Shown: in pieces, positions 40,490 through 57,266 of the stretch
How positions within the stretch are numbered: position 1 is the stretch's first letter
Layout of the letters: each line of letters opens with the position of its first letter
Source: Spirochaetales bacterium
Lineage (GTDB): Bacteria; Spirochaetota; Spirochaetia; UBA9216
Direction: 5' to 3'
Assembly (NCBI GenBank): GCA_016839055.1
Contig: JAEKNX010000002.1
Location: 377,451-441,450, forward strand
Length of the DNA stretch: 64,000 nucleotides
The notes under the pieces: model-generated
What the model saw: only the letters and a program-made list of their open reading frames with translations
The model's database searches: none
Told to the model about the DNA's origin: nothing
Program-made: the position numbers and the translations under genes

Positions 40490-41110
40490 TCATGATTGAG
40501 GATCCAACCTGGCTCTGGACAGGATCCCGACGAGGTAACCGCCGAGAAAGGCTGCGTCTTCGGCAGGCAGGAAATTCGTTATATTATCAGAATAAAGAAT
40601 ATTGGCTTCTAAAGGGAACTCGTCATCGGCCTTAAAGATTTGAACAACCATATCAATCTTCGGAAAAACAGGGATAACCACTGAATAGTCTCCGGTGATC
40701 CACTTTTTCCCGCCAAGTGATGCACCAGCCTCGAGCAGCTCTTCGGGTCTTTTTATGAAATTGCTGATAAGTTTATCCAGAGCCCTCTGTTGAAACGACT
40801 TGAAATAAAACATGCCGCCCGGAATTCCTCTGAAACTGATGAATTCTCCCCTCACCGGGTTCTCGTCCATGGAGGTTAGGTAATGCAGAATAAGCACCTG
40901 CACAATGATTGGAACACCCTTGGTGATAAAACGAACTTCGGGCATGCTTATCTCATAAATCCCACTGAGAAAAGCAATTTTATAGGTTCCGTTTTCAAAT
41001 ATTGCTCCGGTTTTCCGGCATATTTCACCCGATTTTGCATTCTCAAGGATACAAGCCGCTTTATCATAGGCAACGAGCAGACTGTTCTCTATCTGCCTTG
41101 TGTTCGACAT
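40490..41110 (-). CDS. DUF3786 domain protein.
   Basis: 206 aa. Shares distributed sequence similarity with the paralog at 56628..57266. This family is recurrently found near corrinoid/acetyl-CoA pathway genes. Confidence 0.5.
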   Translation of the reverse strand: MSNTRQIENSLLVAYDKAACILENAKSGEICRKTGAIFENGTYKIAFLSGIYEISMPEVRFITKGVPIIVQVLILHYLTSMDENPVRGEFISFRGIPGGMFYFKSFQQRALDKLISNFIKRPEELLEAGASLGGKKWITGDYSVVIPVFPKIDMVVQIFKADDEFPLEANILYSDNITNFLPAEDAAFLGGYLVGILSRARLDPQS

Positions 41111-41265
41111 ATTCCCTCCATGAATACAAAGAATCTTCAGTATTTAAGGTTAGGGTGGGGTAAGTGAATTGTCAATTTATATTTTTAGAAGTTTTGCTTC
41201 TCAAAGTAAAGTATAGTATAATACAACGATATTGATTGTGTTTTTCCATTTTATGAGGAGTAAAT

Positions 41266-41952
41266 ATGAAAGATATTAAGAATGATCCCGCATTTGTAGA
41301 GGGGATGGAAGCTTTCTTGATGGGTGATTGGTCAGCTGCAAAAGATTCTTTTATGCAGCTGGAAAAACATTTCCCCGAGAATGATCATGTCATTTTCATT
41401 CTGGGTAATATCTATTATTCTCTAGGAGTACTGGATAAATCTATCGAATACTATAAAAAAACCATCGAGATTAGCGATGGCGATGTCTGCGGAAATGCCT
41501 ACTATAAAATAGGGGTAAGTTATTTTAAAATGGGGAAATTCACCGAAGCCCTGCAGGCATTCAAGCAGTCAATTCAGGCCGAGAAATCACAGCATGTCAT
41601 GGTTTATTATTATCTTGGGTTAATTTCCACTCACCTGGGCAATGATGAGCAGGCTATCAAATACTTTGATAAACTGCGTCTTGCGTCTCCCCAGACGAAA
41701 ATGGCTATATTTATTGAAGCTCAGTTAAAGGTGAAAAGACACGAGTTTGAAACGGCAATTGAATTGCTGCTGCAATTTCTGGAAGTTTCGCCTGAATTTG
41801 CCGAAGCCCATCACCTGCTCGGTGCAGCATATATGGGTCTGTATCAAAATATGAAAGCGCTCCGCTGCTTCAGAAAGGCTGTGGAATTGAATCCGGCTGA
41901 TAAAAGAAGTGCTATGGAAATTTCCAGACTATCTACTACCGACTGGCCTTAA
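41266..41952 (+). CDS. Tetratricopeptide repeat protein.
   Basis: Repeated 34-residue TPR-like units (e.g. AYYKIGVSYFKMGKFTEALQAFKQ). Confidence 0.6.
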   Translation: MKDIKNDPAFVEGMEAFLMGDWSAAKDSFMQLEKHFPENDHVIFILGNIYYSLGVLDKSIEYYKKTIEISDGDVCGNAYYKIGVSYFKMGKFTEALQAFKQSIQAEKSQHVMVYYYLGLISTHLGNDEQAIKYFDKLRLASPQTKMAIFIEAQLKVKRHEFETAIELLLQFLEVSPEFAEAHHLLGAAYMGLYQNMKALRCFRKAVELNPADKRSAMEISRLSTTDWP

Positions 41953-41962
41953 TTTGTAGTTT

Positions 41963-42745
41963 CTATCTTCTGAAAGCCTCCAGATAGGAATCAGCGTAGA
42001 TAGTCCGGTTCATAATGAGATCAGCCGTCAGAATTGCATTGACAAGTTCGGTATCGTTGACATTCAGTATCACTGCGTCCAGGCCGTGGGCAATTAACAT
42101 TGATACAAATATACGGTTTATTAGTCCTTTTTGAGTTGTGCCGTTAGAAATATTGCTCAATCCGCATACAATATGACAGGGCGGATCAGTAAAAAGTCCG
42201 AACTGGGAAGCTGCATTTAATATTTCAACCGACTGATCCTGCATGAACTTCAGGGGCATGATAATTGGATCAAGAAACAATCTGTCCGGGGGAATATCGT
42301 ATTCCATGAATTTGGCCACTATGGTTCCGGCATGCTCAATCCGTTTGTCGGCAGTGGTCGGACTTCCGCTTTCATCCATTACGAGGCCTATTATCGAAGC
42401 TTTATATTCTGCCACTATCGGCAGTAGCTCATCCAGCTTTTTCTCATCTGCTATTACCGAGTTAACCAGGGGCGGTTTTCTGCAGATGGGTATAGCCTCT
42501 TTAAGCATAACAAATTTGTTGTTGTCGATGGATATCGGCAGATCGACTTCTTCCTGCACCTGTTCAATCATCCAGCAGAGATCTTCGGGTTTATTCGAAA
42601 CCGCCCCCAGATTGACATCCAGATAATCGGCTTTCGCGTCGGCCTGCTGTCTTGCACATTCTTTTATTACATCACCGTCCTTATTCAGTACGGCCTCCTT
42701 GATTTTTTTAAAGCCTGTATTGATTCGCTCTCCTATCAGTATCAT
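41963..42745 (-). CDS. acsE: Methyltetrahydrofolate:corrinoid/iron-sulfur protein Co-methyltransferase.
   Basis: 260 aa. Pterin-binding TIM-barrel profile (MILIGERINTG...DYLDVN...). Position in the acs operon. Confidence 0.8.
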   Translation of the reverse strand: MILIGERINTGFKKIKEAVLNKDGDVIKECARQQADAKADYLDVNLGAVSNKPEDLCWMIEQVQEEVDLPISIDNNKFVMLKEAIPICRKPPLVNSVIADEKKLDELLPIVAEYKASIIGLVMDESGSPTTADKRIEHAGTIVAKFMEYDIPPDRLFLDPIIMPLKFMQDQSVEILNAASQFGLFTDPPCHIVCGLSNISNGTTQKGLINRIFVSMLIAHGLDAVILNVNDTELVNAILTADLIMNRTIYADSYLEAFRR

Positions 42746-42758
42746 TTTTATCCTCCTG

Positions 42759-43706
42759 TTATTGAATGATCTCGCGGATTGTCCGAATTGCTTCCGGATG
42801 CGCCATTATCAGGATGTCAGCCCCTGCCTGAAGGTAGCCTTCGGCACAGACCGCTTCCCACATGGGCCCCCGCTTTCGGGCCTCTCCCCATCCTTCAAGA
42901 ATGTCCTCGCCGACGGTTGCCTCTTTAGTGCGCCACACTTCTTCTCCTACATCGCATAACTGAGGTCGGGCCATTAGTTTATCTCCCTGCAGGCCTGCGC
43001 TGCGTGCCCGTTCCATTATTGTATAAACATAATCAAAGCCGTAACCGAGGGCCGCGGTTGTCTGGAACATGACAATATCATCAAGGCTGAAACCATTGTC
43101 ATCCAGGAGGATATTTACCTGTTTACCGATATTGATATCGACCGGGGCTTCTGATATGAGTTTATGTTTATCAGCCTTGCATATGGCCGCCATGGTTAAA
43201 TAATTTGACTCTGTTGCCGAACCCATCAGACAATTTTCACCCCGGGCAGCCTGTGAGCACTCCTGCAATATCAATCTGTCTTTTTCTTCATTTCCGCTGC
43301 CCCAGATTATAAGAGGAACATCGACGGTCTTAAGAAGATCCTCAATAAGTCCGGCACATTCTTCGGGTGATTTGTCTTTGGTTTCTGCGAGTCCTCCCCT
43401 CAATTTAATACTGATAAGGTTGACTCCGAATTCTTCCACAGCCTTCTGTGCCCACTCGAGGGGAGAATTTATTTCACTGCCAATTGCTTCTTTCAGGAAA
43501 TCCGGCCAATCAGGGACGATGTCGGATATATAACCGGCAATCACAGGAGGGTGAGGTGATTCTCCGTCAAATGACAGATGAGGCATAGCGCTCTGGCCGC
43601 CTATTGTAATGGTACTGCCCCTTGTTCCACCGTCGGCCTTAAGTGCGCCGATGGTAACAGTGCTGATGCGTGATTTGCTGGTTGTTCTTATTTCAGGTAT
43701 TTTCAT
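42759..43706 (-). CDS. acsD: Corrinoid iron-sulfur protein small subunit (CdhD-like).
   Basis: 315 aa TIM-barrel CFeSP small-subunit profile. Overlaps cooC by 14 nt. Confidence 0.8.
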   Translation of the reverse strand: MKIPEIRTTSKSRISTVTIGALKADGGTRGSTITIGGQSAMPHLSFDGESPHPPVIAGYISDIVPDWPDFLKEAIGSEINSPLEWAQKAVEEFGVNLISIKLRGGLAETKDKSPEECAGLIEDLLKTVDVPLIIWGSGNEEKDRLILQECSQAARGENCLMGSATESNYLTMAAICKADKHKLISEAPVDINIGKQVNILLDDNGFSLDDIVMFQTTAALGYGFDYVYTIMERARSAGLQGDKLMARPQLCDVGEEVWRTKEATVGEDILEGWGEARKRGPMWEAVCAEGYLQAGADILIMAHPEAIRTIREIIQ

Positions 43707-44460
43707 TATTGCCTCCTATTTTTTCTATAATCCGGTCAATTGCCGAGAGCACGGCTTTGCTCTTTAAACTGCTGATCGGCAGACTATTAAACACCAGGTC
43801 TTCAATTTCTTCCTCTTTTGGAATATCTGTAAGGAAATCCATACCCAGTTCATCGATTCTTTTATGAACCTCATCGAGTCTGTTTTTATTTACCATGGAG
43901 CTGACAACAAAGGTATTGGTTATTCGGCCATTCATTTCGGATACAATATCCTTTATTTTTGCCGCGCAGCTGAAGGATAGGGGGCTCTCGCTGACCACAA
44001 CAATCAAGGCATCGATGTTTGTCGTGGTACGCCGGCTAAGATGTTCAAGCCCCGCCTCATTATCAATTACTACCCAGCGGTAAGAGGGGGTCAGATCATC
44101 ACAGAACTTCCTTATCAGGCTGTTAATATAGCAATAGCAGCTCGCGCCCTCACCCTTGCCCATGGTAACAAGATCCCATCCTTCACGCTCTTCAATAATC
44201 TGATGCAGCCCGGATTCGATGTAATTCGCCTTGGTCATGCCTGCGGGGAATTCCTTTATGGTCTTAAGAAGATCCTCCCGTAGATCTCCGATTGTCTGTT
44301 CCGGTTCTATTCCAAGCAGAGTTCCCAGATTACAGTCCGGATCGGCGTCTACGGCGAGAACGGGGTTCATTCCTTTGTGGACGAGGCGGCTTATTAAAAG
44401 GGCTGCAATTGTAGATTTACCTGTGCCTCCTTTTCCGGCTACAGCAATGCTTTTTGTCAT
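43693..44460 (-). CDS. cooC: CooC/AcsF-type Ni-insertion ATPase (MinD/ParA fold).
   Basis: Deviant Walker A (AGKGGTGKST). 255 aa. Embedded between the RACo-like gene and acsD. Confidence 0.8.
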   Translation of the reverse strand: MTKSIAVAGKGGTGKSTIAALLISRLVHKGMNPVLAVDADPDCNLGTLLGIEPEQTIGDLREDLLKTIKEFPAGMTKANYIESGLHQIIEEREGWDLVTMGKGEGASCYCYINSLIRKFCDDLTPSYRWVVIDNEAGLEHLSRRTTTNIDALIVVVSESPLSFSCAAKIKDIVSEMNGRITNTFVVSSMVNKNRLDEVHKRIDELGMDFLTDIPKEEEIEDLVFNSLPISSLKSKAVLSAIDRIIEKIGGNNENT

Positions 44461-46328
44461 GAAATTGCCCTCCAGTAATCAATATCAGTATGAGGCAGAA
44501 ACATGGCTTTTTTGAATTCCTCGACGTAATCATCGGCTCCGAGCAAATCATAATAGGTTGTTGCGCTGCGTATTCTTGTAAGTTCATTGAAGGCTTCCTG
44601 ATAGAAGGCTGCCAATTTTGCTCCCTTGATGGATGTGTTACCGGAAAATTTAAATTTATCCAGAGGCAGAGGCGGCAGAAGCCCGATATTTATTGCATTT
44701 TCAATATTGAGATAATAGCCGAAGGCTCCTGCAATGTAGAAAGTATCGAGATCACTGAATTTTAGTGATAAACGCTGCATTATGATGGTGATGGCCGCAA
44801 AAATAGCAGCCTTGGCGGTTATAATATTTTCAATGTCCTTTTCTGTAAGATAAATACTGTTATCCTCTTGGTTAGTTTCTTCAACCAAAACAAAACGCCT
44901 TTTATTGGCTTCACCTGTTTCTGAGGTTCGGTTCTCATCGATGAACCGGCCGGAGCGATCAATAATCTTTTCATTAAGAAGGACACTCAAGAGATCTATG
45001 ATACCGGAGCCGCAAATTCCGATTGGTGGCTGCTTATTTATTGTCGAATACTTAATAATACCGGATTCGACAAAAACCTTATCCACGGCACCCGGTTCAG
45101 CACGCATGCCGCATTCGACACTTGCTCCTTCCAGCGCCGGTCCTGCGGAAGCCGAGGTGGCTACCAGCCAATCTCTGTTTCCGAGAATCACTTCCCCATT
45201 TGTCCCTATGTCTATGAGGAGCCCAAGCTCTTTCTTTTTGTACATTTGAACTGCCAGAATTCCGGCGGTCAGATCACTTCCTACCCAGCCGCTGATGCCG
45301 GGAAGTGAATAAAGCAGGCCGCGCTTGTTGACCTTCAATCCTACTTCGGAAGCCCGGAGTGGGGGCGGTTCGACGGTTACGGGGATAAATGGCTTACGTC
45401 GGATATTATTGGTCGAAAGATCAAGCAGGAAATGCTCCATAGCGGTATTCCCGGCACAGACAACAGCGTTAATATTCTTAATGTCCACATTGTTTCTTTC
45501 GCACAGCATAACGATTAGTCTGTTGATATCATCCACAAGTAATTTCTGCAGCACTTTTACACTTTTTCGTTCCGCGTGGATCATTCGGCCTGTGACCTCA
45601 CTCCCGTGAATCGATTGACTGTTGTAACATGATGCTGAATCGACAGTGGTTCTGGGATGTGCATTGACCAGATGGGCAACCACTGTGGTGGTTCCCATAT
45701 CTACAATAACCATATAGTTCGATGATTCTGTGTCGCCGCCTTCGATATTCATGATCTCGGCGATGTCTCTGCGCAGCCCCACTGTAATGGTTACTTTGTA
45801 ATTATTGTTACGGAGAACCTTCGGCAGTATTTTTATTATTTTCAGTCCCATCTGCATGGTAGGTATATTAAGACGTTTTTTTACGCCGTTTGAAACCAGT
45901 TGATGATCAGCCTGGCCCGAAAAGATAGTAGGCGGTTCAAATTCAATATAAATTTTAGTAACAACCGGGAGGGTTTTATAATGCAGCTCATTGATGTGAG
46001 GTTTATCTTCTTCGCCGAAATTTTCCGAGACTGGAGTGCTGTTGCCTTCTCCCCGGTGTTTTTTTGGTATCTCTACTGTCAGATCTTTATACACAAGGCT
46101 CAAACAGGCCAGCACCCATCCTTTTTTAATCTGAGCTTCATTAAAAGGCCATGAAACCTTGTCCGGAATATCTCCTTCTAAAATGATCATTTTGCATTTA
46201 CCGCATATTCCCTCACCGCCGCAGTTAGTATTCACCTCCAGGCCGGCTTTGCGGGCGGCTTCCAAAAGGGAAGTGCCGCTGCGTACGCTGACTGACTTGT
46301 TCGAAGGATAGAATTTAACTGAATGCAT
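44457..46328 (-). CDS. Reductive activator of corrinoid protein (RACo/AcsV-like). N-terminal plant-type [2Fe-2S] ferredoxin domain plus an ASKHA ATPase domain (DUF4445).
   Basis: N-terminal ...NCGGEGICGKCK... [2Fe-2S] ferredoxin motif. About 620 aa. The start ATG at 46328 overlaps the acsC stop (TAATG) and has a GGGGGA RBS. Confidence 0.7.
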   Translation of the reverse strand: MHSVKFYPSNKSVSVRSGTSLLEAARKAGLEVNTNCGGEGICGKCKMIILEGDIPDKVSWPFNEAQIKKGWVLACLSLVYKDLTVEIPKKHRGEGNSTPVSENFGEEDKPHINELHYKTLPVVTKIYIEFEPPTIFSGQADHQLVSNGVKKRLNIPTMQMGLKIIKILPKVLRNNNYKVTITVGLRRDIAEIMNIEGGDTESSNYMVIVDMGTTTVVAHLVNAHPRTTVDSASCYNSQSIHGSEVTGRMIHAERKSVKVLQKLLVDDINRLIVMLCERNNVDIKNINAVVCAGNTAMEHFLLDLSTNNIRRKPFIPVTVEPPPLRASEVGLKVNKRGLLYSLPGISGWVGSDLTAGILAVQMYKKKELGLLIDIGTNGEVILGNRDWLVATSASAGPALEGASVECGMRAEPGAVDKVFVESGIIKYSTINKQPPIGICGSGIIDLLSVLLNEKIIDRSGRFIDENRTSETGEANKRRFVLVEETNQEDNSIYLTEKDIENIITAKAAIFAAITIIMQRLSLKFSDLDTFYIAGAFGYYLNIENAINIGLLPPLPLDKFKFSGNTSIKGAKLAAFYQEAFNELTRIRSATTYYDLLGADDYVEEFKKAMFLPHTDIDYWRAIS

Positions 46329-47665
46329 TATTTCCCCCAAATTCTATTCAGAAATCCCGGAATCTCTTTTGCCGTTTCAGGACCTATTATTACCTCCTTC
46401 CATTCAGAGAGGTCTTCAATTTCCGCCTTGAAAACCGGCAGAAGCCCCGGAATGATCAGTTTTCGGTGTTTTACTTTTTCAGCAACCTTCTGGTCTTTGA
46501 GAGCCTTTAATATCTTTTCGACTGATATTTTGTCACCCGCCCAGGAGTTGAGCACTCCGAGACCCTCGGTTTCAACAACACAGATATAGGATGGTATTTT
46601 ACTTCTTTCCACTTCACCGGCTACACTGAAGTAGGTGAGGGAAAAGTTCGTTGTATACATTACCGGAGAGTTTTCATTGGGACTGCCGATTTCGTATAAT
46701 TTTGCTTCCACAGTATTGGGTACCTGTGGGTCGGTATATATGTCCTGAATAATAGTCAGATTGGGTGTCACCTGCCAGGCTTCCCGGCCCTTGATTAGTA
46801 CAATTCCGGAATATTTTGCCGCTGCCGCCGCAATTAAGACAGTCTCTATTTCTTCCGAATCACTTTCGAATTCACTGATTATCGGATAGCCGAAGGGACG
46901 GAATTTATTAATCAGGGCCGACCGTCTTACATGGGTTGAAAATCTGACAGCCTCTCCGATGTTCCCGCCCTTGAAGGAAAGAAGCATGTCTTCAACCCCG
47001 GCATCCTTTGCCTTGAGCGTGAAGTCGGCCAATTCTTCTAAGGTTCCGGCCGAGACTGCAAGGGGAAGTTTATTATCAGCCGCTATTTTAATAAAGTCAT
47101 CAATATTAGCGGCGGTCGCCCGGTATATAAGCGGCCTCTTGTCTTTAATGGCCGCTGCCGCCGTACTCATGGGAAGAGGATCTTCACCGGAGAGAATAAT
47201 CGGCAGACGGCTTTTATCTGCGGCGGTTTGTGCTCTTTCGGCCGGATTGCTGCAACCGTCCAGATCTATGGCACAGAACTCAACTTTTATTTCCTTGCCG
47301 ACCCTCGTGAAATTCCGGCTGTTTATCTCGTCTATACCACTTTCTAGTTCAGCAATAGAAAGATTGGCGGCAAGCTTGACGGCAAGGCCGCATTTTCGGT
47401 GAAACTTTTCTTCATGGCGATACATTACAGTTTCCTGGCCTGTTTCGAAGACTGTATCTCCGGATCCTATCTTCACCAGTTTCATGGGAGGTGAGGATTG
47501 CTCAGAAAGAGCCACTGTGGCTTCTTCAGAAATATCCGGGCAATCTGAGATTGCCTTCTGCTTCGCGGCAACCTGCATTGCAAAGGCCATACAGGTGGGA
47601 AAACCACATTTCTTACAGTTTGTCCTTGGAAGCTGTTTGTAGATTTGCATTCCTGTCAGTGCCAT
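46328..47665 (-). CDS. acsC: Corrinoid iron-sulfur protein large subunit.
   Basis: N-terminal [4Fe-4S] motif (CKKCGFPTCMAF...C). TIM-barrel plus C-terminal B12-binding region. 445 aa. Confidence 0.85.
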   Translation of the reverse strand: MALTGMQIYKQLPRTNCKKCGFPTCMAFAMQVAAKQKAISDCPDISEEATVALSEQSSPPMKLVKIGSGDTVFETGQETVMYRHEEKFHRKCGLAVKLAANLSIAELESGIDEINSRNFTRVGKEIKVEFCAIDLDGCSNPAERAQTAADKSRLPIILSGEDPLPMSTAAAAIKDKRPLIYRATAANIDDFIKIAADNKLPLAVSAGTLEELADFTLKAKDAGVEDMLLSFKGGNIGEAVRFSTHVRRSALINKFRPFGYPIISEFESDSEEIETVLIAAAAAKYSGIVLIKGREAWQVTPNLTIIQDIYTDPQVPNTVEAKLYEIGSPNENSPVMYTTNFSLTYFSVAGEVERSKIPSYICVVETEGLGVLNSWAGDKISVEKILKALKDQKVAEKVKHRKLIIPGLLPVFKAEIEDLSEWKEVIIGPETAKEIPGFLNRIWGK

Positions 47666-47695
47666 TTAAAAATCCTCCATAAATTAAGAATAGAA

Positions 47696-49912
47696 TTAGA
47701 ACATTTCATCCATTTCAAGAGCCGGGTGAGAAACCTTTTCAAGGAAGGTGACGAGCTCATCCGGTTCTTCGGCATCTTCCTCGGTGGCTATTTTCTCAAA
47801 TAAGTCCGTCAGGCCGTTGCTTTTGAGTCTTTCTTCCAGACGCGGGCCGATTTCATCTTTAAGCTGCTTGCTCATCCAGACGATACGCTGGTGTCCCCCT
47901 TCCGCAGAAATGAATTTATTACTGCTTATGTAGAGTTTACCTATGCCGATAAATCCTGGCACCTGAAGCCCTCCGCCTACCTGACCTGCCAGGGTTGAGA
48001 AGGTCATTCCAATTGGAGTCATACCTGTAAAATCCCGGTCAACAATCATAATCCCGTTTGCTTCCGGGACAATGGCCGCGATGCACTCGAAACAGCCGCA
48101 GGAGGTCATGGGATCTTCCATTATTGAATAAGCATTGAATTTGGCCAGTGTATTATTTGATTTTACTTTGATATAACTGTTGATGCCATCCCACTGTCCC
48201 TTAATCGGATCGATACTATTGCCTTTATTAACCGGCTCGTTTGGCCCATGTTTGTTTATCTGATAGGAAGCTTTGCTGTCCAGCCATGTATAGGCACCGC
48301 AGAGCCCGAGTCTTTCCGGAGTAATTATGCAGACATGATTGGGGGCATAGGACTGACACAGGGTACAGGAGTAAAACTGGTCCACATCTTCATCGGTCAT
48401 TCCGCCTATGCGGTCATCCCTGTCGGCATAGACCTCCCTGGCAATTTTATGAAGCTCTTCCACCTTGGCAGCATCGGTATAGAATTTTATCTGGACCCTG
48501 TCAACGATGGTTGAAAACTCATTATGCATGCGGGCCAGGATGATCTCGCCGAAATCCCTGACGGTGAATCCTTTTGATTGTGCATCCTTACTGATTCTGA
48601 GCCAGATAATGGCCCGCTGACCCATGTGGAATATTCCATTGGCACAGGAGATGAATTCATGCATTCTACGCTCAAGAACAGTCTCAAAGTCTTCCTGGAA
48701 CTCACGGCCGGCAACTTCCACCATCATTGCCAGCGGGTAGGCTTCTCCTTCCTTCATCTCATCTATTTCAGGTCCGATAATTTCTATCTTTCCGTCTTCC
48801 ACCTCAGAGAGAGGTTTCATCCGCAGCAGTTCGAAAGCCTCGGAGAATTTGCCGCCGAACTGTACATACATGTCTTCTTTTCGCACCCGCTCACCCTCAA
48901 AGCCGGCACCGTAAGGTACTGGTATTGGGATGTTTTCCACCTTGACTGTCAGGTCGCGCAGTTCTATTGCCCGGCCGATTATTTCATCGAGTTTAATTCC
49001 GGATATTACATGCTCAAAGTTGCATATTCCCGTGGGCAGTATTTCCGGAATATTTACATCGGAAATGACCGGGAACCCGAAGTTTATAGCTCCGGCGGCG
49101 GTGGCATATTTTTCATCGGTGATCAGCTGATCCTTTCCGGCGTCCTTGTCCGAACCTAAGGCCATGACAAAGGCGTGCACCCGGTCGTTGTTGTACATCA
49201 GAATTTCTCTGGTCGCTTTGGCGCTTCCTGCCTCAATGCCTCCGAAGGTCATGGCAGAGCGGGCGGCGAAATTGAGAGCATGTATTGCGGCTGTTATATC
49301 TTTGCCGAAGGGGACGAGAAAGGTGTCCCAGTTCATTTCAATTCTTTCTTCGGCCAGTTGTTCAGCAATTGATCGTCCATTGGTATTACCGGCAATAAAA
49401 ACGAGAATGTTTTTTTCCTGCAGTTCCCTGACAAGCTTTACCGCCTGAGCATTTGTTTCGGTGCAGCCTACTATCGCTGCAAATCCGGGCATTCTGCCGT
49501 CAACAAGTTTAATACCCTGAGAACGAAGAATATTGTCGCCTGAAAATCCCAGCCAGATGTCGTCGACGGAAGCTGCGCCGTTTAAATATTTAAGTGATTC
49601 GATAATTTCCTCTGCAATCAGGGTTGCGACACCCGAATCCAGGGTTTCACCGAGGTAGGGCAGCCATGTTTTTTCAGCAGGAATGGTTCCAAGCAGGCTG
49701 CGGGCCTCCTGGAGGGAAGACTCAAGATCCCCGAGCTGTTTTACCTTCTGCCCCAGAAACAGATACATAATGGGCAGGAAGTAAGCAGTATTGGGATAGG
49801 CTACAATGGATTCTTTCCCGTATTTTTTGACTGCTGTTTCCAGAGCTTCCGAGGCTCTGTCTACCATTTGGTGAGCTCCTCTTATAGCTGCCGTCGCAAT
49901 TATTTTAGACAT
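47696..49912 (-). CDS. acsB: Acetyl-CoA synthase catalytic subunit (A-cluster).
   Basis: 738 aa. Cys-Gly-Cys bridging motif (SCGCFEC) and upstream Cys residues for the [4Fe-4S] cluster. Typical length. Confidence 0.9.
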   Translation of the reverse strand: MSKIIATAAIRGAHQMVDRASEALETAVKKYGKESIVAYPNTAYFLPIMYLFLGQKVKQLGDLESSLQEARSLLGTIPAEKTWLPYLGETLDSGVATLIAEEIIESLKYLNGAASVDDIWLGFSGDNILRSQGIKLVDGRMPGFAAIVGCTETNAQAVKLVRELQEKNILVFIAGNTNGRSIAEQLAEERIEMNWDTFLVPFGKDITAAIHALNFAARSAMTFGGIEAGSAKATREILMYNNDRVHAFVMALGSDKDAGKDQLITDEKYATAAGAINFGFPVISDVNIPEILPTGICNFEHVISGIKLDEIIGRAIELRDLTVKVENIPIPVPYGAGFEGERVRKEDMYVQFGGKFSEAFELLRMKPLSEVEDGKIEIIGPEIDEMKEGEAYPLAMMVEVAGREFQEDFETVLERRMHEFISCANGIFHMGQRAIIWLRISKDAQSKGFTVRDFGEIILARMHNEFSTIVDRVQIKFYTDAAKVEELHKIAREVYADRDDRIGGMTDEDVDQFYSCTLCQSYAPNHVCIITPERLGLCGAYTWLDSKASYQINKHGPNEPVNKGNSIDPIKGQWDGINSYIKVKSNNTLAKFNAYSIMEDPMTSCGCFECIAAIVPEANGIMIVDRDFTGMTPIGMTFSTLAGQVGGGLQVPGFIGIGKLYISSNKFISAEGGHQRIVWMSKQLKDEIGPRLEERLKSNGLTDLFEKIATEEDAEEPDELVTFLEKVSHPALEMDEMF

Positions 49913-49969: not shown

Positions 49970-50821
49970 TTATCCTGTCTCCTTGCTGGTCAATCGATTA
50001 TAATCGGAAACATCGGACAGCCCCTTTGCTGTCCGATGTAAAACGGTTCTGACTGAATAATTTTTCTTTCTTCTACAGGCCGGACAACAGGAGAGAAGTT
50101 CATCTGTTATAGTAATTTTTTCCTTAAGCTGTTCCATCTGGACGGATGTTCCGACCGGCTGCCCGCAATCGGGGCAAAATATCATCTCCAGGGCAACGCC
50201 CCAGTCTTGCTTCCTGAGTTTTTTATTTTCAATCTTGAAATTTATCACGCCTGTAGGACACACCGCCTCACAGGCCTTGCAGCCTATGCAGAGATCTCCT
50301 GCGATTTTAAAGGGGGAGACCACCTCCTTTTTTATGCCGCGTCCTGAGAACCCTATGGCCTCGGCCTTTATCAGTTCATTGCAGACTCTCATGCATAACC
50401 CGCATAGAATACAGTTCGATTTTCCCTCATCAGCAGCAGTGAAACGGGGCTTGGTTATTCCGTTTTCAAGTGCCAGTTTCATTATCTGCTGAGAATCCGG
50501 AGCCCTGGATAGCAGCAGTTCTATTATCAGTTTTCTCTCTTTGAGAACTCTCGGAGAATGTGTTTTTATATTCAGCCCCTCGGATGCGGGGCAGACACAG
50601 GCCGAATCTATCCAGCTGCGGTCAGGGTTTTGAGAGGGGTTGCTGATTTCCACTATACACAGCCTGCAGGAGCCGCTAGGGCTAAGCTCTTCATGGTGGC
50701 AGAGTGTTGGTATCCTTATCTCCAGCATGGCGGCCGCTTTTAAGATTGTAGTTCCTTGCGGAACACGGATTTTCCTGCCGTCAATTATTATTTCAACCTG
50801 CTTTGTGACCGTCATTTTCAA
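49970..50821 (-). CDS. [2Fe-2S]/[4Fe-4S] electron-transfer protein resembling the N-terminal domain of NuoG/HydA. No catalytic domain.
   Basis: N-terminal plant-type 2Fe-2S (CHHEELSPSGSCRLC). Two CxxCxxCxxxCP ferredoxin motifs. An extra C-terminal CPDC...CCPAC Cys4 motif. Confidence 0.7.
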   Translation of the reverse strand: MKMTVTKQVEIIIDGRKIRVPQGTTILKAAAMLEIRIPTLCHHEELSPSGSCRLCIVEISNPSQNPDRSWIDSACVCPASEGLNIKTHSPRVLKERKLIIELLLSRAPDSQQIMKLALENGITKPRFTAADEGKSNCILCGLCMRVCNELIKAEAIGFSGRGIKKEVVSPFKIAGDLCIGCKACEAVCPTGVINFKIENKKLRKQDWGVALEMIFCPDCGQPVGTSVQMEQLKEKITITDELLSCCPACRRKKNYSVRTVLHRTAKGLSDVSDYNRLTSKETG

Positions 50822-52659
50822 ACCTTCTTCACTGCGTCAAACCTGCAGACTTCAAAACATATGCCGCATTTCACACATTTCGCTGTATCTATGGTGTGAA
50901 CCTCTTTTTTCCGCCCTTCGATGGCTTGATATGGACATTTCACCTGGCAGAGCATGCAGCCGGTACATTTTTCATTGTCAATTTTATATTGAAAAAGGCT
51001 GCGGCAGACACCGGGGCTGCACTTTTTATCGACAATATGCTCCATATACTCATCCTTGAAGTAACGCAGGGTACTTAAGACCGGATTAGGTGCTGTTTTT
51101 CCTAGGGCACAGAGAGAGCTGTCCTTCACCATTTCTCCTATCTCCTCGAGGGCCGCCAAATCTTCTTCTTTTCCTTTGCCCTCAGTTATCCGGGTGAGAA
51201 TGGAAAGAAGCTGCCACAGGCCTTCCCTGCAGGGAGTGCATTTACCGCAGGATTCTTCGACGAGGAAGGACAGATAGAATCTCGCTACTTCCACCATGCA
51301 GGTGTCCTCGTCCATCACGATAAGACCTCCGGATCCCATCATCGAGCCGAGGCTTGTGAGTTCATCGAAATCTACCGACCTGTCAAGATACTGCCCGGGG
51401 ATGCAGCCGCCCGAAGGTCCTCCTGTCTGGATTGCCTTGAACTCCCGGCCGCCTGGAATCCCGCCTCCGATATCGAATACAATCTCACGGAGAGACATTC
51501 CCATCGGAACCTCAATGAGTCCGGTGTTCCTGACTTTGCCGACGAGCGAGAAGATCTTTGTGCCCTTGCTGCCCGGGGTTCCGATCTTATTGAACCAGGC
51601 GGCGCCCCGGTTAATGATGATTGGAATATTAGCCCAGGTTTCGACATTGTTCAGGTTGGTCGGCAGGTTGTAAAGGCCGCTTTCGGTGGTGTGAATGTGC
51701 TTTGTGCGGGGCTCGCCGCTGTAACCCTGCAGAGACTGCATCAGCGCGGTTGACTCACCGCAGACGAAGGCTCCGCCTCCTTTTGTTACTTCAATGTCGA
51801 AGGATAACTCCGATCCGAGAATTTTCTCACCGAGCAGGCCCCATTTTCTGGCATCGGCTATCGCCTTGATAATGTTTTCAACTGCAAGCGGATATTCGGC
51901 ACGGACATAGATTCGGCCTTCCCTGGCGCCGATCGCAAAGGCTCCGATTAGCATTCCTTCAATAACCGAGTGAGGGTTGCCCTCCAGCAGGGATCTATCC
52001 ATATAGGCTCCGGGATCTCCTTCATCCGCGTTGCAGACAACGTATTTCGAGCTGCCTGGGGCAATGCGGCAGGACTTCCATTTCTTGCCTGTCGGGAAAC
52101 CTCCGCCGCCCCGTCCGCGGAGGCCGGATTTTTCCACCTCTCCGATCACTTCTTCCGGGCTCAGATCCGATAGAACCCTTGTCAAAGCGGAATAGCCGCC
52201 CGTGATTATATAATCCTCTATGCTTTTTGGATCGATATGACCGTTCTGGGCGAATACCAGCCTTTGCTGTTTCTCATAAAAAGGAATATCGTTTTCTTTT
52301 ATCAGTTTACGGCCGGTTTCTGGATCTTCATACAGGAGGCGTTCGATCACTTCTCCGTTTTTAAGGGATTTCTCTACTATTTCATCAATATCAGACGGCT
52401 GGATGCGCTGGTAAAAAATATTTTCAGGCCTGATAACCATTAAGGGCCCGTTTTCACACAGGCCGTGGCAGCCGGTTTCCTTGATTGTGATATCGATATT
52501 TTTTTCAGTAACGGTCTTCCGGAGCAGGACCAGCAGTTTTTCCGATTCGCTGGCCCGGCAGCCGGTTCCGCCGCAGAGGGATACTGTCCGGAGAGTAGAT
52601 TTTTTCTCAGTAAGATGAGTCCTTACCGAAACAAGCTGTTCGTTTCCTGTCAGTTTCAT
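50818..52659 (-). CDS. NuoF/HydB-like NAD(P)H-binding FMN flavoprotein subunit with an N-terminal thioredoxin-like [2Fe-2S] domain and C-terminal 2x[4Fe-4S].
   Basis: GGGGFPTGKKW FMN-site motif. 51-kDa-subunit profile. C-terminal CTGCMLCQVKCP and CVKCGICFEVC clusters. ATGA overlaps with both neighbours. Confidence 0.8.
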   Translation of the reverse strand: MKLTGNEQLVSVRTHLTEKKSTLRTVSLCGGTGCRASESEKLLVLLRKTVTEKNIDITIKETGCHGLCENGPLMVIRPENIFYQRIQPSDIDEIVEKSLKNGEVIERLLYEDPETGRKLIKENDIPFYEKQQRLVFAQNGHIDPKSIEDYIITGGYSALTRVLSDLSPEEVIGEVEKSGLRGRGGGGFPTGKKWKSCRIAPGSSKYVVCNADEGDPGAYMDRSLLEGNPHSVIEGMLIGAFAIGAREGRIYVRAEYPLAVENIIKAIADARKWGLLGEKILGSELSFDIEVTKGGGAFVCGESTALMQSLQGYSGEPRTKHIHTTESGLYNLPTNLNNVETWANIPIIINRGAAWFNKIGTPGSKGTKIFSLVGKVRNTGLIEVPMGMSLREIVFDIGGGIPGGREFKAIQTGGPSGGCIPGQYLDRSVDFDELTSLGSMMGSGGLIVMDEDTCMVEVARFYLSFLVEESCGKCTPCREGLWQLLSILTRITEGKGKEEDLAALEEIGEMVKDSSLCALGKTAPNPVLSTLRYFKDEYMEHIVDKKCSPGVCRSLFQYKIDNEKCTGCMLCQVKCPYQAIEGRKKEVHTIDTAKCVKCGICFEVCRFDAVKKV

Positions 52660-53108
52660 TGCGAGGTGAACTCCTGAAAGATTTTCTCTACCTTGGCCGG
52701 GGTTATATGTCCGTTGTATTTTTTATTAATAACCATTATTGGACCCAGGGCGCAGGCTCCCAGACAATTAACTGTCTCGAGGGAAAAACTGCCGTCTGCG
52801 CTGGTTTCTCCATTTTTAATACCCAGGCTGCGTTCAATTTCCTCCAGTATCCGCCCTGCACCGCGGACGTGACAGGCAGAACCCATGCAGACTTTGACGA
52901 TATTGCGTCCCTTGGGTTTGAGTGAGAAAACATTATAGAAGGTGGCCACCGAATAGACATGATGAAGGGGCAGACTTAAGCCTGCTGCTACTTTTTTGAT
53001 ACTGTCTTCGGAAAGAAAATTGAACTCTTCCTGTATTTCCTGTAGAATCGGAATCAATGATTCCGGCGTCAGGGGGAAATCAGCTATAATCTTTCCTACT
53101 TTTTTCAC
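52656..53108 (-). CDS. NuoE/HydC-like thioredoxin-fold [2Fe-2S] subunit.
   Basis: 150 aa. CMGSACHVRG ... CLGACALGP cysteine pattern of the 24-kDa subunit family. Confidence 0.75.
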   Translation of the reverse strand: MKKVGKIIADFPLTPESLIPILQEIQEEFNFLSEDSIKKVAAGLSLPLHHVYSVATFYNVFSLKPKGRNIVKVCMGSACHVRGAGRILEEIERSLGIKNGETSADGSFSLETVNCLGACALGPIMVINKKYNGHITPAKVEKIFQEFTSQ

Positions 53109-53111
53109 TCT

Positions 53112-53642
53112 TTATTTCTCCAATGCCTCGCTCTGCACCATGGATACTCTGAATTTGCTTATAACTTCCTTTCTTCTGTCCGCCGTGATATCTTCAACAC
53201 TGGTGAAGCGGATGGCTTTAGTGGGGCAGGCGGCGGCACAGGCGGGTATTTTCCCTTCTTCCAGTCTGTCTATACATAGATCACATTTTGATAATGATAT
53301 TGCCTGCGGAACTGCCTTTATTATTCCGAAGGGACAGACCATCACGCAGGCATTGCATCCGATGCATTTATCCATGTTTAATACAACCGGTTCGTCCGGC
53401 CCGCTTCTATCCATGGCAGCTGTTGGACAGACTGTAATGCAGGGGGCGTCGGTGCAGTGACGGCAGTGCATCGGGATAACATCATCGCCGTCTGTTTCGA
53501 GAATAATCCTGGGGTAGAGACGTTCGCTGCTGTAGAGCGCTTCTACAAGAGTATTGCTTTTTGAGTGAGCCAGGGCGCATTCGAGTTCACATGTGTGACA
53601 ACCCTGACATCTGCTGATAACTACCTCAATTATACTGTTCAT
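53112..53642 (-). CDS. cooF: CooF-type iron-sulfur electron-transfer protein (4x[4Fe-4S]).
   Basis: 176 aa with four CxxCxxCxxxCP-type motifs. Lies immediately downstream of cooS. Confidence 0.75.
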   Translation of the reverse strand: MNSIIEVVISRCQGCHTCELECALAHSKSNTLVEALYSSERLYPRIILETDGDDVIPMHCRHCTDAPCITVCPTAAMDRSGPDEPVVLNMDKCIGCNACVMVCPFGIIKAVPQAISLSKCDLCIDRLEEGKIPACAAACPTKAIRFTSVEDITADRRKEVISKFRVSMVQSEALEK

Positions 53643-53646
53643 ACTA

Positions 53647-55572
53647 TCACTCCTGGTCCAGCACCTTTAGTGCCTGCTCATAGACCATGGGTTTGAGCTT
53701 AAGGAGTTTTCTTTTTTTATCGATGTGTCTGATCATTTTATGAGCGGCTTTGACGGGATCCTCTTCAAAGGCCCATTTGCCGCCGACTTCTGCTTCGATT
53801 TCATCGGTAAGGTAATTAAACATTTTTTTGCTGCCCATCATCGGAAGAGGCTTGCCTATCATGGTATATACACCCGAGGCTACAAAATAGAAACCGATTG
53901 AAACGGCTTTTTCACTCATCCATTCCGGCGCGGCGCCGGCCGCCGGCAGATCGGAGATGTCATTTCCAAGACCGCCTTCGGCTACGATATTGGACAGAAC
54001 CCGCAGGATGCGGCTGTTATCCACACATGAACCCATGTGCAGCACCGGAGGAATGCCAACTGTACGGCAGATTTCCTGCAGACCCTTTCCCGCGTATTTA
54101 AAAGCTGATTCTGGCTGCAGCAGTCCGTGCTTCGCACAGGATATGGCATTGCAGCCGGTGACAACCACCAGTACATCGTTTTTAATCAGTTCCTTGACCA
54201 TCTGGATATGGCCGCTTTCGTAAGGCACATTCGGATTTGAGCAGCCGATAACGCCCGCGGCTCCCCTCAGGCGGCCTTCTTTGATAGCGTTGTTCAGCGG
54301 CCGGTAGGTGGCCCTGTATTTTCCGCCGAGAAAATCAAATACCGATTCGGCGGTAAAACCCGCTACCATCGGCTCTTTCTCCGACGGCAGATAGACAGAT
54401 TCTTTATTTCGTCTGGAATAATTGTCTATAGCAATCTCTATTATCTCTTTGGAGGTCTTAATCGCGTCTGTCTCATGGAATTCTATATGCTTCACTCCGG
54501 GAATCTTTGCCTTATCCGAAGTTGTCACGAGTTCGGTATGAAAACAATCCGCTACTGCCTTAAGGCCGGGCATTATACACTGCACATCGACAATCATCAT
54601 GTCGACGACTCCTGTCATGATCGCGAGTTCCTGCTGCAGAAAACTACCGGCAACCGGAATTCCTCGTCTCATCAGAATTTCATTGGCTGTACAGCATATT
54701 CCAGCTATGTTTATCCCTGTAGCTCCTGCATCCTTTGCCTTTTTATCCATCTCATCAGAGGTGGCTATCTCGGCTATGATGTCGGAGAGGGCAGGTTCAT
54801 GACCGTGTACAATAACGTTTATTTTAGCTTCATCCATAACACCGAGGTTGGCGCTTGATTTCAGGGGGTTAGGTGTACCGTACAGAATGTCTTGAAGTTC
54901 AGTGGCCACCATTGACCCGCCCCAGCCGTCGGCGAGGGACGTCCTCATTCCATGATTTATCAGATGACGGTATTCGGCATCCACTCCCATATGGGTACGG
55001 TGCATGGTTTCGACAACTTCTCTGTCGATGCTGCGGGGCATAATGTTTAGTTCTTTCCATAGTTTTATTCTGGTTTCCGGAGCGGTTCCTGCTGTCTTTA
55101 GAAATCCATCCTGCCGGCCGAATTCATTTTTTGCTTCGCTTACCAGGTCGAGTGCTATCTCTTTTGCGCTTCGATCTTTTGTTTTTAAGCCGTAGATCTC
55201 GGCGACTGCCCTTAGTTTTGCTTCATCTTTGATTTTGTATGCTGAATCTCCTTCGGCTGCCATCTGAAGAGTATGAACAACGGTTCGGCCGTGATCCGAG
55301 TGGGCGGCAGCACCGGCGGCGATCATACGGCAGAGATGCCGGGCCGCAATGGTATCTGCGTCGGCTCCGCAAACTCCCACCTGGGGCCCATCCCCGAATG
55401 GATCAATTCGGCAGGGCCCCATGGAGCAGTGCCGGCAGCATAAACCAAGCTGCCCGAACCCGCACTGGGGCTGCATGGCCTCGAACCTGTCCCAGACTGT
55501 CTGCATATTCTCTTTTGCGGCAAATTTAATCATTTTTTGAGTGGCTTCATCGGAAAACGAATGGTCCATCAT
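53647..55572 (-). CDS. cooS: Ni,Fe carbon monoxide dehydrogenase catalytic subunit.
   Basis: 641 aa. N-terminal CGFGQLGLCCRHCSMGPCRI D/B-cluster motif. CODH/prismane-fold profile. Confidence 0.9.
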   Translation of the reverse strand: MMDHSFSDEATQKMIKFAAKENMQTVWDRFEAMQPQCGFGQLGLCCRHCSMGPCRIDPFGDGPQVGVCGADADTIAARHLCRMIAAGAAAHSDHGRTVVHTLQMAAEGDSAYKIKDEAKLRAVAEIYGLKTKDRSAKEIALDLVSEAKNEFGRQDGFLKTAGTAPETRIKLWKELNIMPRSIDREVVETMHRTHMGVDAEYRHLINHGMRTSLADGWGGSMVATELQDILYGTPNPLKSSANLGVMDEAKINVIVHGHEPALSDIIAEIATSDEMDKKAKDAGATGINIAGICCTANEILMRRGIPVAGSFLQQELAIMTGVVDMMIVDVQCIMPGLKAVADCFHTELVTTSDKAKIPGVKHIEFHETDAIKTSKEIIEIAIDNYSRRNKESVYLPSEKEPMVAGFTAESVFDFLGGKYRATYRPLNNAIKEGRLRGAAGVIGCSNPNVPYESGHIQMVKELIKNDVLVVVTGCNAISCAKHGLLQPESAFKYAGKGLQEICRTVGIPPVLHMGSCVDNSRILRVLSNIVAEGGLGNDISDLPAAGAAPEWMSEKAVSIGFYFVASGVYTMIGKPLPMMGSKKMFNYLTDEIEAEVGGKWAFEEDPVKAAHKMIRHIDKKRKLLKLKPMVYEQALKVLDQE

Positions 55573-55766
55573 TTTTCTCCCTTTTTTTATATAAGCTTAA
55601 GGTGAAAAATACATCCGAAATGGACTTAATGCTCAGGCCTGATAACCCGGATTCATAATAATCGTAAACCGAATTATCAAATAATGCAACTTTAAGATTA
55701 ATATTTTGATATTTAACCCGACATGATTAGATGTTTGGTTAAAAGTTTTCATTTATTTCTTATATT

Positions 55767-56552
55767 TCAGTTTTTAGAGGTTATTTTGCTGATTTCTGTT
55801 AAAATCTGATTGAACTCCTCAAGGGAACCTTCTGTCAGTGCATCCAGAATTGAGACCCCTGGTCTGTCGGCCTTCCGGAACTCCTCCCTGAAGGAGATAA
55901 ATCCGAGTATTTTCGCATCGGGCAGGGCTTTTTTTATGAATTCCCGGTCATCCTGCTCCTTTATTTTATTGCCGACAACATAAACTCTCAATAGACCGAT
56001 TTCTCCAGATAGCTCAAATATTTTTCGGGCACATTCAATCGACATCTGTCCCGGTTCGACGACGACCAGCATTATATCGACTCCGCCTGCCGTTGCTCTG
56101 CCGAGATGTTCGATCCCCGCCTCCATGTCCAGGAGTAATGTCTCATCCTTATGCAGAATAAGGTCCCGGACCAAAGCCCGGAGCAGAACGTTTTCAGGAC
56201 AGGCGCAGCCGCCCCCGCCTCTGCGGATTGCTCCGAGGACCAGAAGGGAGATTCCCCTGTAGAGGGTTGCGTAGGTATCACTGATATCCGATACTTCGGG
56301 GTTCAGTTTAAACATCTGGCCGTATTGATTGACCTTAGCCCCTGTACGCTCTTCAATCAGTTCTGTCTGTTTCGATATGGGAATGATCTTATCCTGCATT
56401 TCACGGGGCATCCCCAGAGCTGCGGCCAGGTTAGCGTCGGGATCGGCATCAATGGCAAGCACCTTGTTTCCCTTTTCAGTTAAAAGAAGGGCCAGGGCGG
56501 AGGAGATAGTCGACTTTCCGACGCCGCCTTTTCCAGTGATCGCTATTTTCAT
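55767..56552 (-). CDS. cooC: CooC-type CODH nickel-insertion ATPase (second paralog).
   Basis: Walker A (GKGGVGKST). 261 aa. Directly upstream of cooS. Confidence 0.8.
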   Translation of the reverse strand: MKIAITGKGGVGKSTISSALALLLTEKGNKVLAIDADPDANLAAALGMPREMQDKIIPISKQTELIEERTGAKVNQYGQMFKLNPEVSDISDTYATLYRGISLLVLGAIRRGGGGCACPENVLLRALVRDLILHKDETLLLDMEAGIEHLGRATAGGVDIMLVVVEPGQMSIECARKIFELSGEIGLLRVYVVGNKIKEQDDREFIKKALPDAKILGFISFREEFRKADRPGVSILDALTEGSLEEFNQILTEISKITSKN

Positions 56553-56627
56553 TTTCTCCTCCTTTTTGCTCTTGTTTCATTATAAGTCACTGATTAAATA
56601 TTTCTCAAGGAAAATCGTTTTTAATAA

Positions 56628-57266
56628 ATGACAATTCAATTTCTCTCTTATACAATTACAGGTATGGAAGAGCAAAAAAAAGCATATTGGGAACCTAAGC
56701 TGTGGGAAGAATTAAGGTCACAGGATCCGGCGAGGATCTGTGAGCGATCCGGGGCTGATTATGATCCCGGCGGATTCTATGAGATCAGCTCTCTGGACAG
56801 AAGGGTAAGGATCTATCCAGAGGAAGAACGGCTGGAGTCCGACGATTTGGAACTTGCTTCCAGCATGGAATATCAGCTGCTCTTGGTTTCTTATCTCCTC
56901 TATGCCCAGAATATTGATCCGACAGGGGAATGGGTGTCGGAAAAGGATCTAAAGGGCGGCAGTCTCTTCTTTCGCGGTCCCCACGCGGTTCCCTCTGCTC
57001 CTCTGGAAAGACAGTTCGGTAGTGATGCCAAGGGATTCCGGGAGAAAGCACTCACCCTCGGCGGCCGCCCCGCAGAATTCGGGGACCTGTCGATGGTTTT
57101 TCAAATCCTGCCCCGTATTTCATTTGCCGTTGTTCTGTGGGTTAAAGATGAGGAATTTCCGGCCCGCGTCACATTCATGTTCGATTCATCGATTGATGCC
57201 CATCTGCCCCTGGATGTGATATTTGCCATGACGCAGGCGGCTGCTCAAAAACTGCTGGGCGAATAG
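56628..57266 (+). CDS. DUF3786 domain protein (second paralog).
   Basis: 212 aa. The only plus-strand gene inside the cluster. An alternative start is possible at 56664 (MEEQKK). Confidence 0.5.
   Translation: MTIQFLSYTITGMEEQKKAYWEPKLWEELRSQDPARICERSGADYDPGGFYEISSLDRRVRIYPEEERLESDDLELASSMEYQLLLVSYLLYAQNIDPTGEWVSEKDLKGGSLFFRGPHAVPSAPLERQFGSDAKGFREKALTLGGRPAEFGDLSMVFQILPRISFAVVLWVKDEEFPARVTFMFDSSIDAHLPLDVIFAMTQAAAQKLLGE

Follow-up and report, generated by a model that had tools for sequence, protein, structure and literature searches.

Diverged DUF3786 Paralogues Bracket a Wood-Ljungdahl Gene Cluster in a Spirochaete Lineage

Introduction

Acetogenesis, syntrophy, and gas fermentation all have the Wood-Ljungdahl pathway at their centre. 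Functional expression of its enzymes in foreign hosts is difficult, and little is understood of how acs operons are regulated. Besides the enzymes, the clusters that encode the pathway hold proteins that are small or non-catalytic for carbon chemistry. CooC/AcsF are P-loop Ni-insertion ATPases, CooT and CooJ are Ni chaperones, and RACo is an ATP-dependent reductive activator of the corrinoid protein. Here we describe two DUF3786 genes, copies A and B, that lie on either side of the carbon monoxide dehydrogenase/acetyl-CoA synthase (CODH/ACS) genes in a 64,000-nucleotide stretch of the Spirochaetales bacterium assembly GCA_016839055.1 (contig JAEKNX010000002.1, positions 377,451 to 441,450; hereafter the window, in whose own numbering positions are given).

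Like the proteins named above, A and B belong to such clusters, B standing beside cooC and the relatives of A (the A side) beside RACo or acsE. Unlike CooC/AcsF and RACo, to which they show no similarity, A and B have neither a P-loop, an ASKHA or 2Fe-2S domain, nor a Cys/His-rich metal site, and they thus lack the marks of CooC/AcsF-type ATPases and of other metallochaperones; CooT and CooJ are set apart from them by their established features. A further point of comparison is the effector module of transcription factors (LacI; the IclR ligand-binding domain (LBD) and GAF; SRPBCC/Bet v 1), as one family member, P0137, carries DUF3786 C-terminal to a complete LacI-type regulator. However, A and B come without a helix-turn-helix (HTH) and resemble such modules non-significantly in fold (E > 0.2, TM < 0.3), so that the likeness is one of kind only. 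Nor are they members of the LacI family: PF12654 was all that they matched, and HTH and Peripla_BP_3 domains were found in P0137 only.

PF12654 (DUF3786) is an uncharacterised family of bacteria and archaea without an assigned function (Pfam). Our literature search found no paper linking DUF3786 to the Wood-Ljungdahl pathway and none containing the term "PF12654," and the only occurrence of "DUF3786" that it found was in passing, in a table that lists Helicobacter pylori HP0386. The annotation of A and B as DUF3786 was already known. New here are the splitting of DUF3786 into subfamilies with distinct motifs and genomic contexts, some clades being tied to Wood-Ljungdahl genes, and the fusion of the domain to a LacI-type regulator. 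In this spirochaete lineage A and B truly belong to the Wood-Ljungdahl gene cluster; what they may do there is offered as a testable hypothesis.

Results and Discussion

Family membership and fold of A and B

Both open reading frames (ORFs) matched PF12654 end to end and far above its gathering cutoff (27 bits; 176-position model), A with E = 1.8e-46 and 158.3 bits over model positions 4-174 and B with E = 7.7e-43 and 146.5 bits over positions 1-173. Aligned with each other, they were 25% identical over 166 residues (E = 6e-16). A and B are homologous but strongly diverged DUF3786 paralogues, and in this the first-pass annotation of the window, which had called both ORFs DUF3786 and similar to each other yet diverged, was correct. 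Identical proteins, named "DUF3786 domain-containing protein" by NCBI, are encoded on a 509-kb contig of a Spirochaetales metagenome-assembled genome (MAG). Searched with a profile, a set of 1.84 billion representative proteins yielded ~3,800 DUF3786 clusters at 50% identity, and since A and B, which fall in different subfamilies, are each nearer to proteins of other phyla than to one another, their duplication is ancient.

AlphaFold2 predicted both structures with high confidence (predicted local distance difference test, pLDDT, 94.8 for B and 94.6 for A; predicted template-modelling score, pTM, 0.90 each) and with a common alpha+beta architecture of two N-terminal helices, a small beta-meander, a central helical segment, and a four-stranded antiparallel sheet against a long C-terminal helix. 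The main difference between the models lies at residues 99-118, where A has a single continuous helix and B a helix-loop-helix, the loop of which carries FFRGPH, invariant among B-type proteins. A fold search with both models gave no significant match (all E > 0.2, TM < 0.3), the weak top matches being mostly small-molecule-binding alpha+beta domains, and any resemblance of the models to SRPBCC (Bet v 1/START-like) or GAF/IclR-LBD domains is at this level only. In an hmmsearch of PDB sequences with a profile built from 65 family members, nothing scored at E <= 1. The structure prediction proposed in the first-pass annotation has thus yielded a confident common fold, with no solved structure matching it significantly. 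The N-terminal helices were considered as an HTH and ruled out, as in both models the second helix runs straight into a beta strand and leaves no recognition helix.

Few polar residues are conserved across the family (R/K104, D141, D162, E164; D[DE]EFP loop), while B-type proteins have R104, H107, W159, and D174 as extra invariants. The two proteins are acidic (pI 4.7 and 5.3) and soluble, and because their longest apolar run is only 9 residues, a membrane segment is unlikely. Cys and His are scarce (2 and 1 in A, 1 and 2 in B); none of the Cys is shared by the whole family, and the one invariant His, H107, is confined to the B-type. Neither protein matched NCBIfam or any Pfam family besides PF12654, CbiA/ParA/NifH-type families included, and neither has a catalytic, redox-cofactor, nucleotide-binding, B12-binding, or Cys/His-rich metal motif. 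In four other family members weak N-terminal DUF2007 (PII-like) extensions were seen below the Pfam threshold; all such DUF2007 and DUF3795 "fusions" fall under Pfam gathering scores, and we regard them as weak hints only.

Conservation of the bracket in close relatives

The arrangement of A and B around the cluster is retained in close relatives. Orthologues of B diverge from cooC at 63-78% identity: locus L081 (B 74% identical) has cooS, cooC, divergent B, and mobA-fdhA in the order of the window, and L084 (63%) retains the cooC-B pair with the mobA-fdh flank swapped for unrelated genes. Orthologues of A hold their position after acsE at 57-76% identity. In L088 (57% identical, on the same 103-kb contig as L084), A directly follows acsE on the same strand without the tetratricopeptide repeat (TPR) gene that intervenes in the window, while this gene is also present in L175 and L093 (66% and 76%). 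Both paralogues occur on one contig in at least three other assemblies. Since the bracket recurs at 57-78% identity even with different outer flanks, the placement of A and B is not accidental. In relatives of A's clade that lack the TPR gene, an intrinsic terminator comes after acsE, and 250-300 bp of non-conserved spacer then lead to DUF3786, so that DUF3786 in this clade is a transcription unit of its own that keeps its place. A search of the spacer for conserved elements at the RNA or DNA level showed the acsE terminator as the sole recurrent feature, the rest being unalignable.

Linkage to Wood-Ljungdahl genes across the family

For the A side, we defined acs-linked clades by the motif [GA]D[DE]EFP[PA]x[AG][QN]..L[YF]S together with AED and by a gene position directly after acsE, metF, or RACo. 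A carries the corresponding sequences (ADDEFPLEANILYSDN, PAED) and clusters with acsE-adjacent loci; in the window, just as in L093 and L175, the TPR gene interrupts its adjacency to acsE. Among 80 metagenome loci with the A-type motif, 58 were assessable, and a pathway gene lay immediately upstream on the same strand in 18 of these (acsE in 11, metF in 6, metV in 1), a lower bound given that detection relied on a panel of proteins from the window itself, at E <= 1e-6. The corresponding count for B-type loci was 0 of 74 (Fisher p = 6.6e-8). In 3 A-side loci cooC was immediately downstream. Linked proteins vary widely (34% median pairwise identity), as do their loci in GC (0.38-0.63). Among the remaining assessable loci there was no second dominant context, and TPR proteins stood beside a few unlinked A-side genes (4/120 neighbours).

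In a neighbour-joining tree, linkage followed clades. A's clade is consistently beside acsE, and a second clade is consistently beside acsE or metF, frequently in the order cooC-folD-acsD-cooS-acsB-acsC-acsE-(metF)-DUF3786-nuoE-nuoF-hdrA/nfnB-like-fdhA. Spacing in this second clade is 0-40 bp or an overlap (0 bp after metF; 9 bp after metF with a 23-bp overlap into nuoE; 40 bp after acsE with a 4-bp overlap into nuoE). In a clade of gut Firmicutes DUF3786 follows RACo, and in MAGs of Ruminococcaceae/Oscillospiraceae it is the last co-directional gene after acsD, acsC::acsE, acsB, and RACo (~28% identical to A). No linkage is seen in the other A-side clades or in most of the B side. The nearest recurrent neighbours are enzymes of the methyl branch or of folate metabolism (AcsE, MetF/V, FolD, GcvT-SHMT), RACo, or CooC, and not CooS itself.

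The B-type subfamily, which we defined by FFRGPH[AQG][LV]P, W..D[DE]EFPAR, and HLPLDV, includes B, in which all three motifs are present, and not A, which carries FYFKSF and ADDEFPLEAN instead. We sampled 80 loci with these motifs from species-representative genomes, mostly Desulfobacterota and Spirochaetota. A first panel (tblastn with the acs/cooS proteins of the window), which held no methyl-branch genes, found almost no linkage; a widened panel added cases with metF, folD, and GcvT-SHMT, and most B-type loci were still without a pathway gene. No core pathway gene lay immediately upstream in any of the 74 assessable loci; a pathway gene lay immediately downstream in 3 of 72 (metV, folD, metF), cooS/cooF were 4-8 kb away in three, and seven Desulfobacula-like loci had a convergent GcvT-SHMT fusion gene alongside. 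Other neighbours were heterogeneous (PilZ in 9/125, D-aminopeptidase in 7, together with histidine kinases and response regulators). One spirochaete relative of B (52% identity) is part of a co-directional operon of metV, metF, FeS, HdrA-like, MvhD, FeS, FeS, NAD-binding, DUF3786, and folD. Within B's subfamily the link to the pathway is confined to B's small spirochaete clade, where DUF3786 is either divergent from cooC or part of the metF-hdrA-folD operon.

Wood-Ljungdahl linkage of DUF3786 is therefore clade-specific, deep and statistically strong on A's side and narrow for B. Where the first-pass annotation had made enrichment near acs genes a test of its proposal, linkage was found in A-side clades and in B's spirochaete clade, the family taken as one not being dedicated to CODH/ACS.

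A LacI-DUF3786 fusion at the head of an equivalent operon

The best match of the family profile was P0137 (763 aa; NCBI MGQ9629262.1, "MAG: ... [bacterium]"), in which a LacI-type HTH and a Peripla_BP_3 domain are followed by an A-like and a B-type DUF3786 domain. The A-like domain is 34% identical to A and 31% to B; the B-type domain is 50% identical to B and contains FFQGPHKLP and DEEFPAR. The gene lies directly upstream of, and co-directional with, cooC, cooS, cooF, nuoE, nuoF, an FeS protein gene, and acsB (locus L173). The window has an operon of the same build, in which B occupies the place of the fusion. The P0137 ORF is uninterrupted and is identical in a Logan assembly. Since A-like and B-like domains are joined in one polypeptide, the A- and B-types may act together. 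The acsB gene that follows in L173 (17096-18292) runs off the locus and encodes an intein-containing acetyl-CoA synthase subunit, a 1713-aa product with intein-splicing and LAGLIDADG endonuclease domains.

Start and transcription of B and A

The first-pass annotation began B at ATG 56628, which would give 212 aa. This ATG falls within the -35-like hexamer ATGACA of a promoter-like site, whereas the NCBI annotation and most homologues begin at ATG 56664 (200 aa), which is most likely the true start. The promoter-like site facing B on the plus strand is ATGACA-17-TACAAT (56628-56656; 10/12 matches), and back to back with it a minus-strand site faces cooC (TTGAGA-18-TATAAT, 56608-56579; 11/12 matches). 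The region between cooC and B can be aligned with that of L081, the promoter being conserved, and the 7 nt between the end of the -10-like box and the ATG are kept at the equivalent ATG of L081, L084, and L002. Because so short a distance precedes ATG 56664, the B mRNA would be leaderless; cooC has a strong Shine-Dalgarno (SD) sequence and B has none. B is thus most likely transcribed independently, as the first-pass annotation had supposed. An operator search of the cooC-B region found a 13-nt imperfect inverted repeat (56586-56598 / 56620-56632) that is not conserved in relatives. A strong SD sequence (GGAGG) precedes the ATG of A at 41110, and the promoter of A itself must lie in the 155 bp between A and the divergent TPR gene (41111-41265), within which sigma-70-like matches were weak and did not exceed shuffled expectation.

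Proposed function and alternative explanations

As a tentative reading, possible rather than probable, we propose that A and B together constitute a non-enzymatic sensor/adaptor module of the pathway. They would act jointly, probably as a heteromeric partner- or ligand-binding module that reports on or adapts the methyl-branch/corrinoid-protein side of the pathway and modulates the expression or activity of CODH/ACS. Four points make us favour this reading: DUF3786 occurs fused to a LacI-type regulator, B is placed divergently, as a regulator would be, catalytic and cofactor motifs are lacking, and signalling proteins (PilZ, histidine kinases, response regulators) recur beside unlinked B-type genes. 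The immediate partners are for the most part folate-dependent enzymes (AcsE, MetF/V, FolD, GcvT-SHMT), which may be a clue to the ligand. A bolder form, which we consider unlikely, is that DUF3786 is a new sensor fold whose A/B heteromer binds a pathway signal and controls transcription or activity of the CODH/ACS operon. Candidate signals would be CO, methyl- or methylene-folate species, corrinoid state, or redox; the invariant His of the B-type FFRGPH could be a ligand; and control might be exerted through protein contacts in this spirochaete or, in P0137, as the effector module of a LacI-type repressor. If true, this would be the first dedicated acs operon regulator outside the CO sensors CooA and RcoM.

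Several observations weigh against the sensor/adaptor proposal. The stand-alone proteins have no DNA-binding domain, our neighbour survey found no transcription factor recurring beside DUF3786 elsewhere, and the tight translational coupling seen in operons characterises subunits or assembly factors more often than regulators. Ligand binding gains nothing from the fold search, in which no match was significant. Pathway genes are missing from the surroundings of most B-type loci and of some two thirds of the A-side loci, and one family member is listed in Helicobacter pylori, which is not known to have the Wood-Ljungdahl pathway. As for P0137, it represents one protein cluster from one MAG, with which the Logan assembly may share reads, and its LacI/A-like junction keeps an in-frame SD-ATG remnant.

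The main rival, which we judge rather unlikely, is that DUF3786 proteins are not regulators but maturation or assembly chaperones that load or protect the cofactor of the carbonyl/methyl junction, for example by working with RACo to place cobamide into the corrinoid iron-sulfur protein, or with CooC in the handling of Ni. Such a role would suit a gene that stands immediately behind RACo in Firmicutes, behind acsE at many loci, and beside cooC both in B's clade and in L136, L145, L153, and L165. It would also suit the translational coupling within operons, the genes of the metal-binding glyoxalase/VOC superfamily between RACo and DUF3786, the VOC-DUF3786 fusion P0330, the family-wide acidic residues D141, D162, and E164, and the invariant R104/H107 of the B-type. 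Against it, no Cys/His-rich metal, nucleotide-binding, or B12-binding motif and no NCBIfam or other Pfam match was found, many family members have no corrinoid or Ni enzyme nearby, and a pure chaperone hardly accounts for the LacI fusion. Nothing in this analysis showed the chaperone or corrinoid-handling activity suggested by the first-pass annotation; the sole direct functional hint, the P0137 fusion, points to regulation. Doubtful to a greater degree, and the least probable of the explanations, is a small structural or adaptor subunit bridging MetF/MetV (or AcsE) to NuoE/NuoF-, HdrA-, and FdhA-like modules. It draws on one clade (L113, L124, L131, L149, L168) whose DUF3786 gene is flanked by metF/acsE on one side and by nuoE-nuoF-hdrA/nfnB-like-fdhA on the other, at distances of 0-40 bp or overlapping, and on B's 52% relative, placed between an HdrA-like/MvhD/FeS/NAD-binding module and folD. 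However, A's own clade lies 250-300 bp away behind an intrinsic terminator, and in the window A is cut off from acsE by an opposite-strand gene while B is divergent, arrangements ill-suited to a stoichiometric subunit; moreover, there is no redox cofactor motif, and the Firmicute loci have no adjacent redox module.

DUF3786 might also have no dedicated role in the pathway, being a general small protein of anaerobes whose adjacency to these genes is inherited synteny or chance in a few lineages. The large size of the family (~3,800 clusters, the Helicobacter pylori member included), the heterogeneity of its neighbours, and the lack of an adjacent pathway gene in 69-71 of 72-74 B-type loci and ~70% of A-side loci would all agree with this. 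We nevertheless think it improbable, as linkage arises in several separate clades with different partners (acsE, metF, RACo, cooC) and spacing, across a GC range of 0.38-0.63 and at 34% median identity, the cooC-B linkage outlives rearrangement of the outer flank (L084), the contrast of 18/58 with 0/74 is highly significant, and the fusion protein P0137 heads an equivalent operon. The dedicated role suggested in the first-pass annotation thus gains from the conserved bracket and from the linked A-side and spirochaete B clades and loses by the unlinked majority, which comprises most of the B-type loci and roughly two thirds of those on the A side. As a conserved neighbour of acsE, metF, RACo, or cooC in many unrelated lineages, DUF3786 is a concrete candidate for a missing accessory or regulatory factor of the pathway, and the subfamily split points to the genes worth testing (the A-side clades and the spirochaete B clade) as opposed to those probably unrelated to it.

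Gene layout and additional observations

Coordinates are collected in Table 1. Both ORFs were found where the first-pass annotation had placed them, and the Pfam labels of the neighbours agree with its description: the gap from the acsE stop to the start of A is 852 bp (given earlier as about 850 bp) and contains the convergent TPR gene, while B, between cooC and mobA, is the sole plus-strand gene from acsE to the end of the window. The remainder of the window consists of housekeeping genes.

Table 1. Features of the window and of related loci (locus number given where a position is outside the window).
Feature	Position	Strand	Annotation
DUF3786 copy A, 206 aa	40490-41110	minus	PF12654; motifs FYFKSF, ADDEFPLEANILYSDN, PAED
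A/TPR divergent intergenic region	41111-41265		155 bp
TPR-repeat protein, 228 aa	41266-41952	plus	Pfam TPR families; convergent on acsE, divergent from A
acsE	41963-42745	minus	Pfam Pterin_bind
acsD	42759-43706	minus	Pfam CdhD
cooC/acsF	43693-44460	minus	Pfam CbiA
RACo	44457-46340	minus	Pfam RACo domains
acsC	46328-47665	minus	Pfam FeS + CdhD
acsB	47696-49912	minus	Pfam CdhC/ACS_CODH_B_C
2Fe2S/4Fe4S protein	49970-50821	minus	Pfam
NuoF-like	50818-52659	minus	Pfam
NuoE-like	52656-53108	minus	Pfam
cooF	53112-53642	minus	Pfam
cooS	53647-55572	minus	Pfam
cooC	55767-56552	minus	Pfam
Divergent cooC/B promoter region	56553-56663		between cooC (minus) and B (plus)
DUF3786 copy B, 200 aa	56664-57266	plus	PF12654; motifs FFRGPHAVP, DEEFPAR, HLPLDV
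mobA	57673-58248	minus	Pfam
fdhA-like molybdopterin oxidoreductase	58248-60965	minus	Pfam
Second NuoF-like	60980-62845	minus	Pfam
Second NuoE-like	62838-63317	minus	Pfam
TPR gene in relatives	L093 129-818; L175 5161-5850
GcvT-SHMT (aminomethyltransferase-serine hydroxymethyltransferase) fusion, ~887 aa	L016 8940-11603		convergent with B-type DUF3786; also L031, L050, L059, L064, L068, L075

The cooC-cooS-cooF-NuoE-NuoF-FeS gene order of the window is repeated in L081, L084, and L173. The mobA-fdhA-NuoF-NuoE block is the formate dehydrogenase module of the Wood-Ljungdahl pathway. The cluster holds two NuoE/NuoF-like modules, one in the cooF-acsB interval together with a HydG/NuoG-like 2Fe-2S/4Fe-4S protein (49970-53108) and the other beside fdhA (60980-63317). 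Such a layout, also present in L081, L084, and L173, suggests that CODH and formate dehydrogenase form complexes that are NAD(P)H-linked or bifurcating. The convergent ends of B and mobA are separated by a gap of ~400 bp (57267-57672) in which neither a terminator-like site nor an Rfam match was found and which contains only an 88-aa ORF with a GTG start (57342-57608, plus). An Rfam scan of the whole window found no riboswitch or other RNA family.

Some features of DUF3786 loci elsewhere are recorded here. The acsC::acsE fusion of the Ruminococcaceae/Oscillospiraceae MAGs encodes ~750 aa (FeS + CdhD + Pterin_bind; L090 572-2836, L092 675-2930), and two glyoxalase/VOC genes lie between RACo and DUF3786 in L092 (7146-7917). 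P0330 is a separate protein of 300 aa in which a VOC domain is fused to DUF3786. Long DUF3786 ORFs in L098, L034, L037, L051, and L006 were rejected as fusions, as their N-terminal extensions are domain-free and are probably upstream in-frame sequence. The DUF3786 homologue of L095 (1943-3619) has an in-frame stop in the aligned region and may be a pseudogene, a sequencing error, or a case of recoding. Finally, a second instance of two unlike DUF3786 types in adjacent positions is the tandem pair of L079 (73-666 and 975-1562), in which a B-type DUF3786 gene is followed by a very divergent DUF3786 gene without the D[DE]EFP motif.

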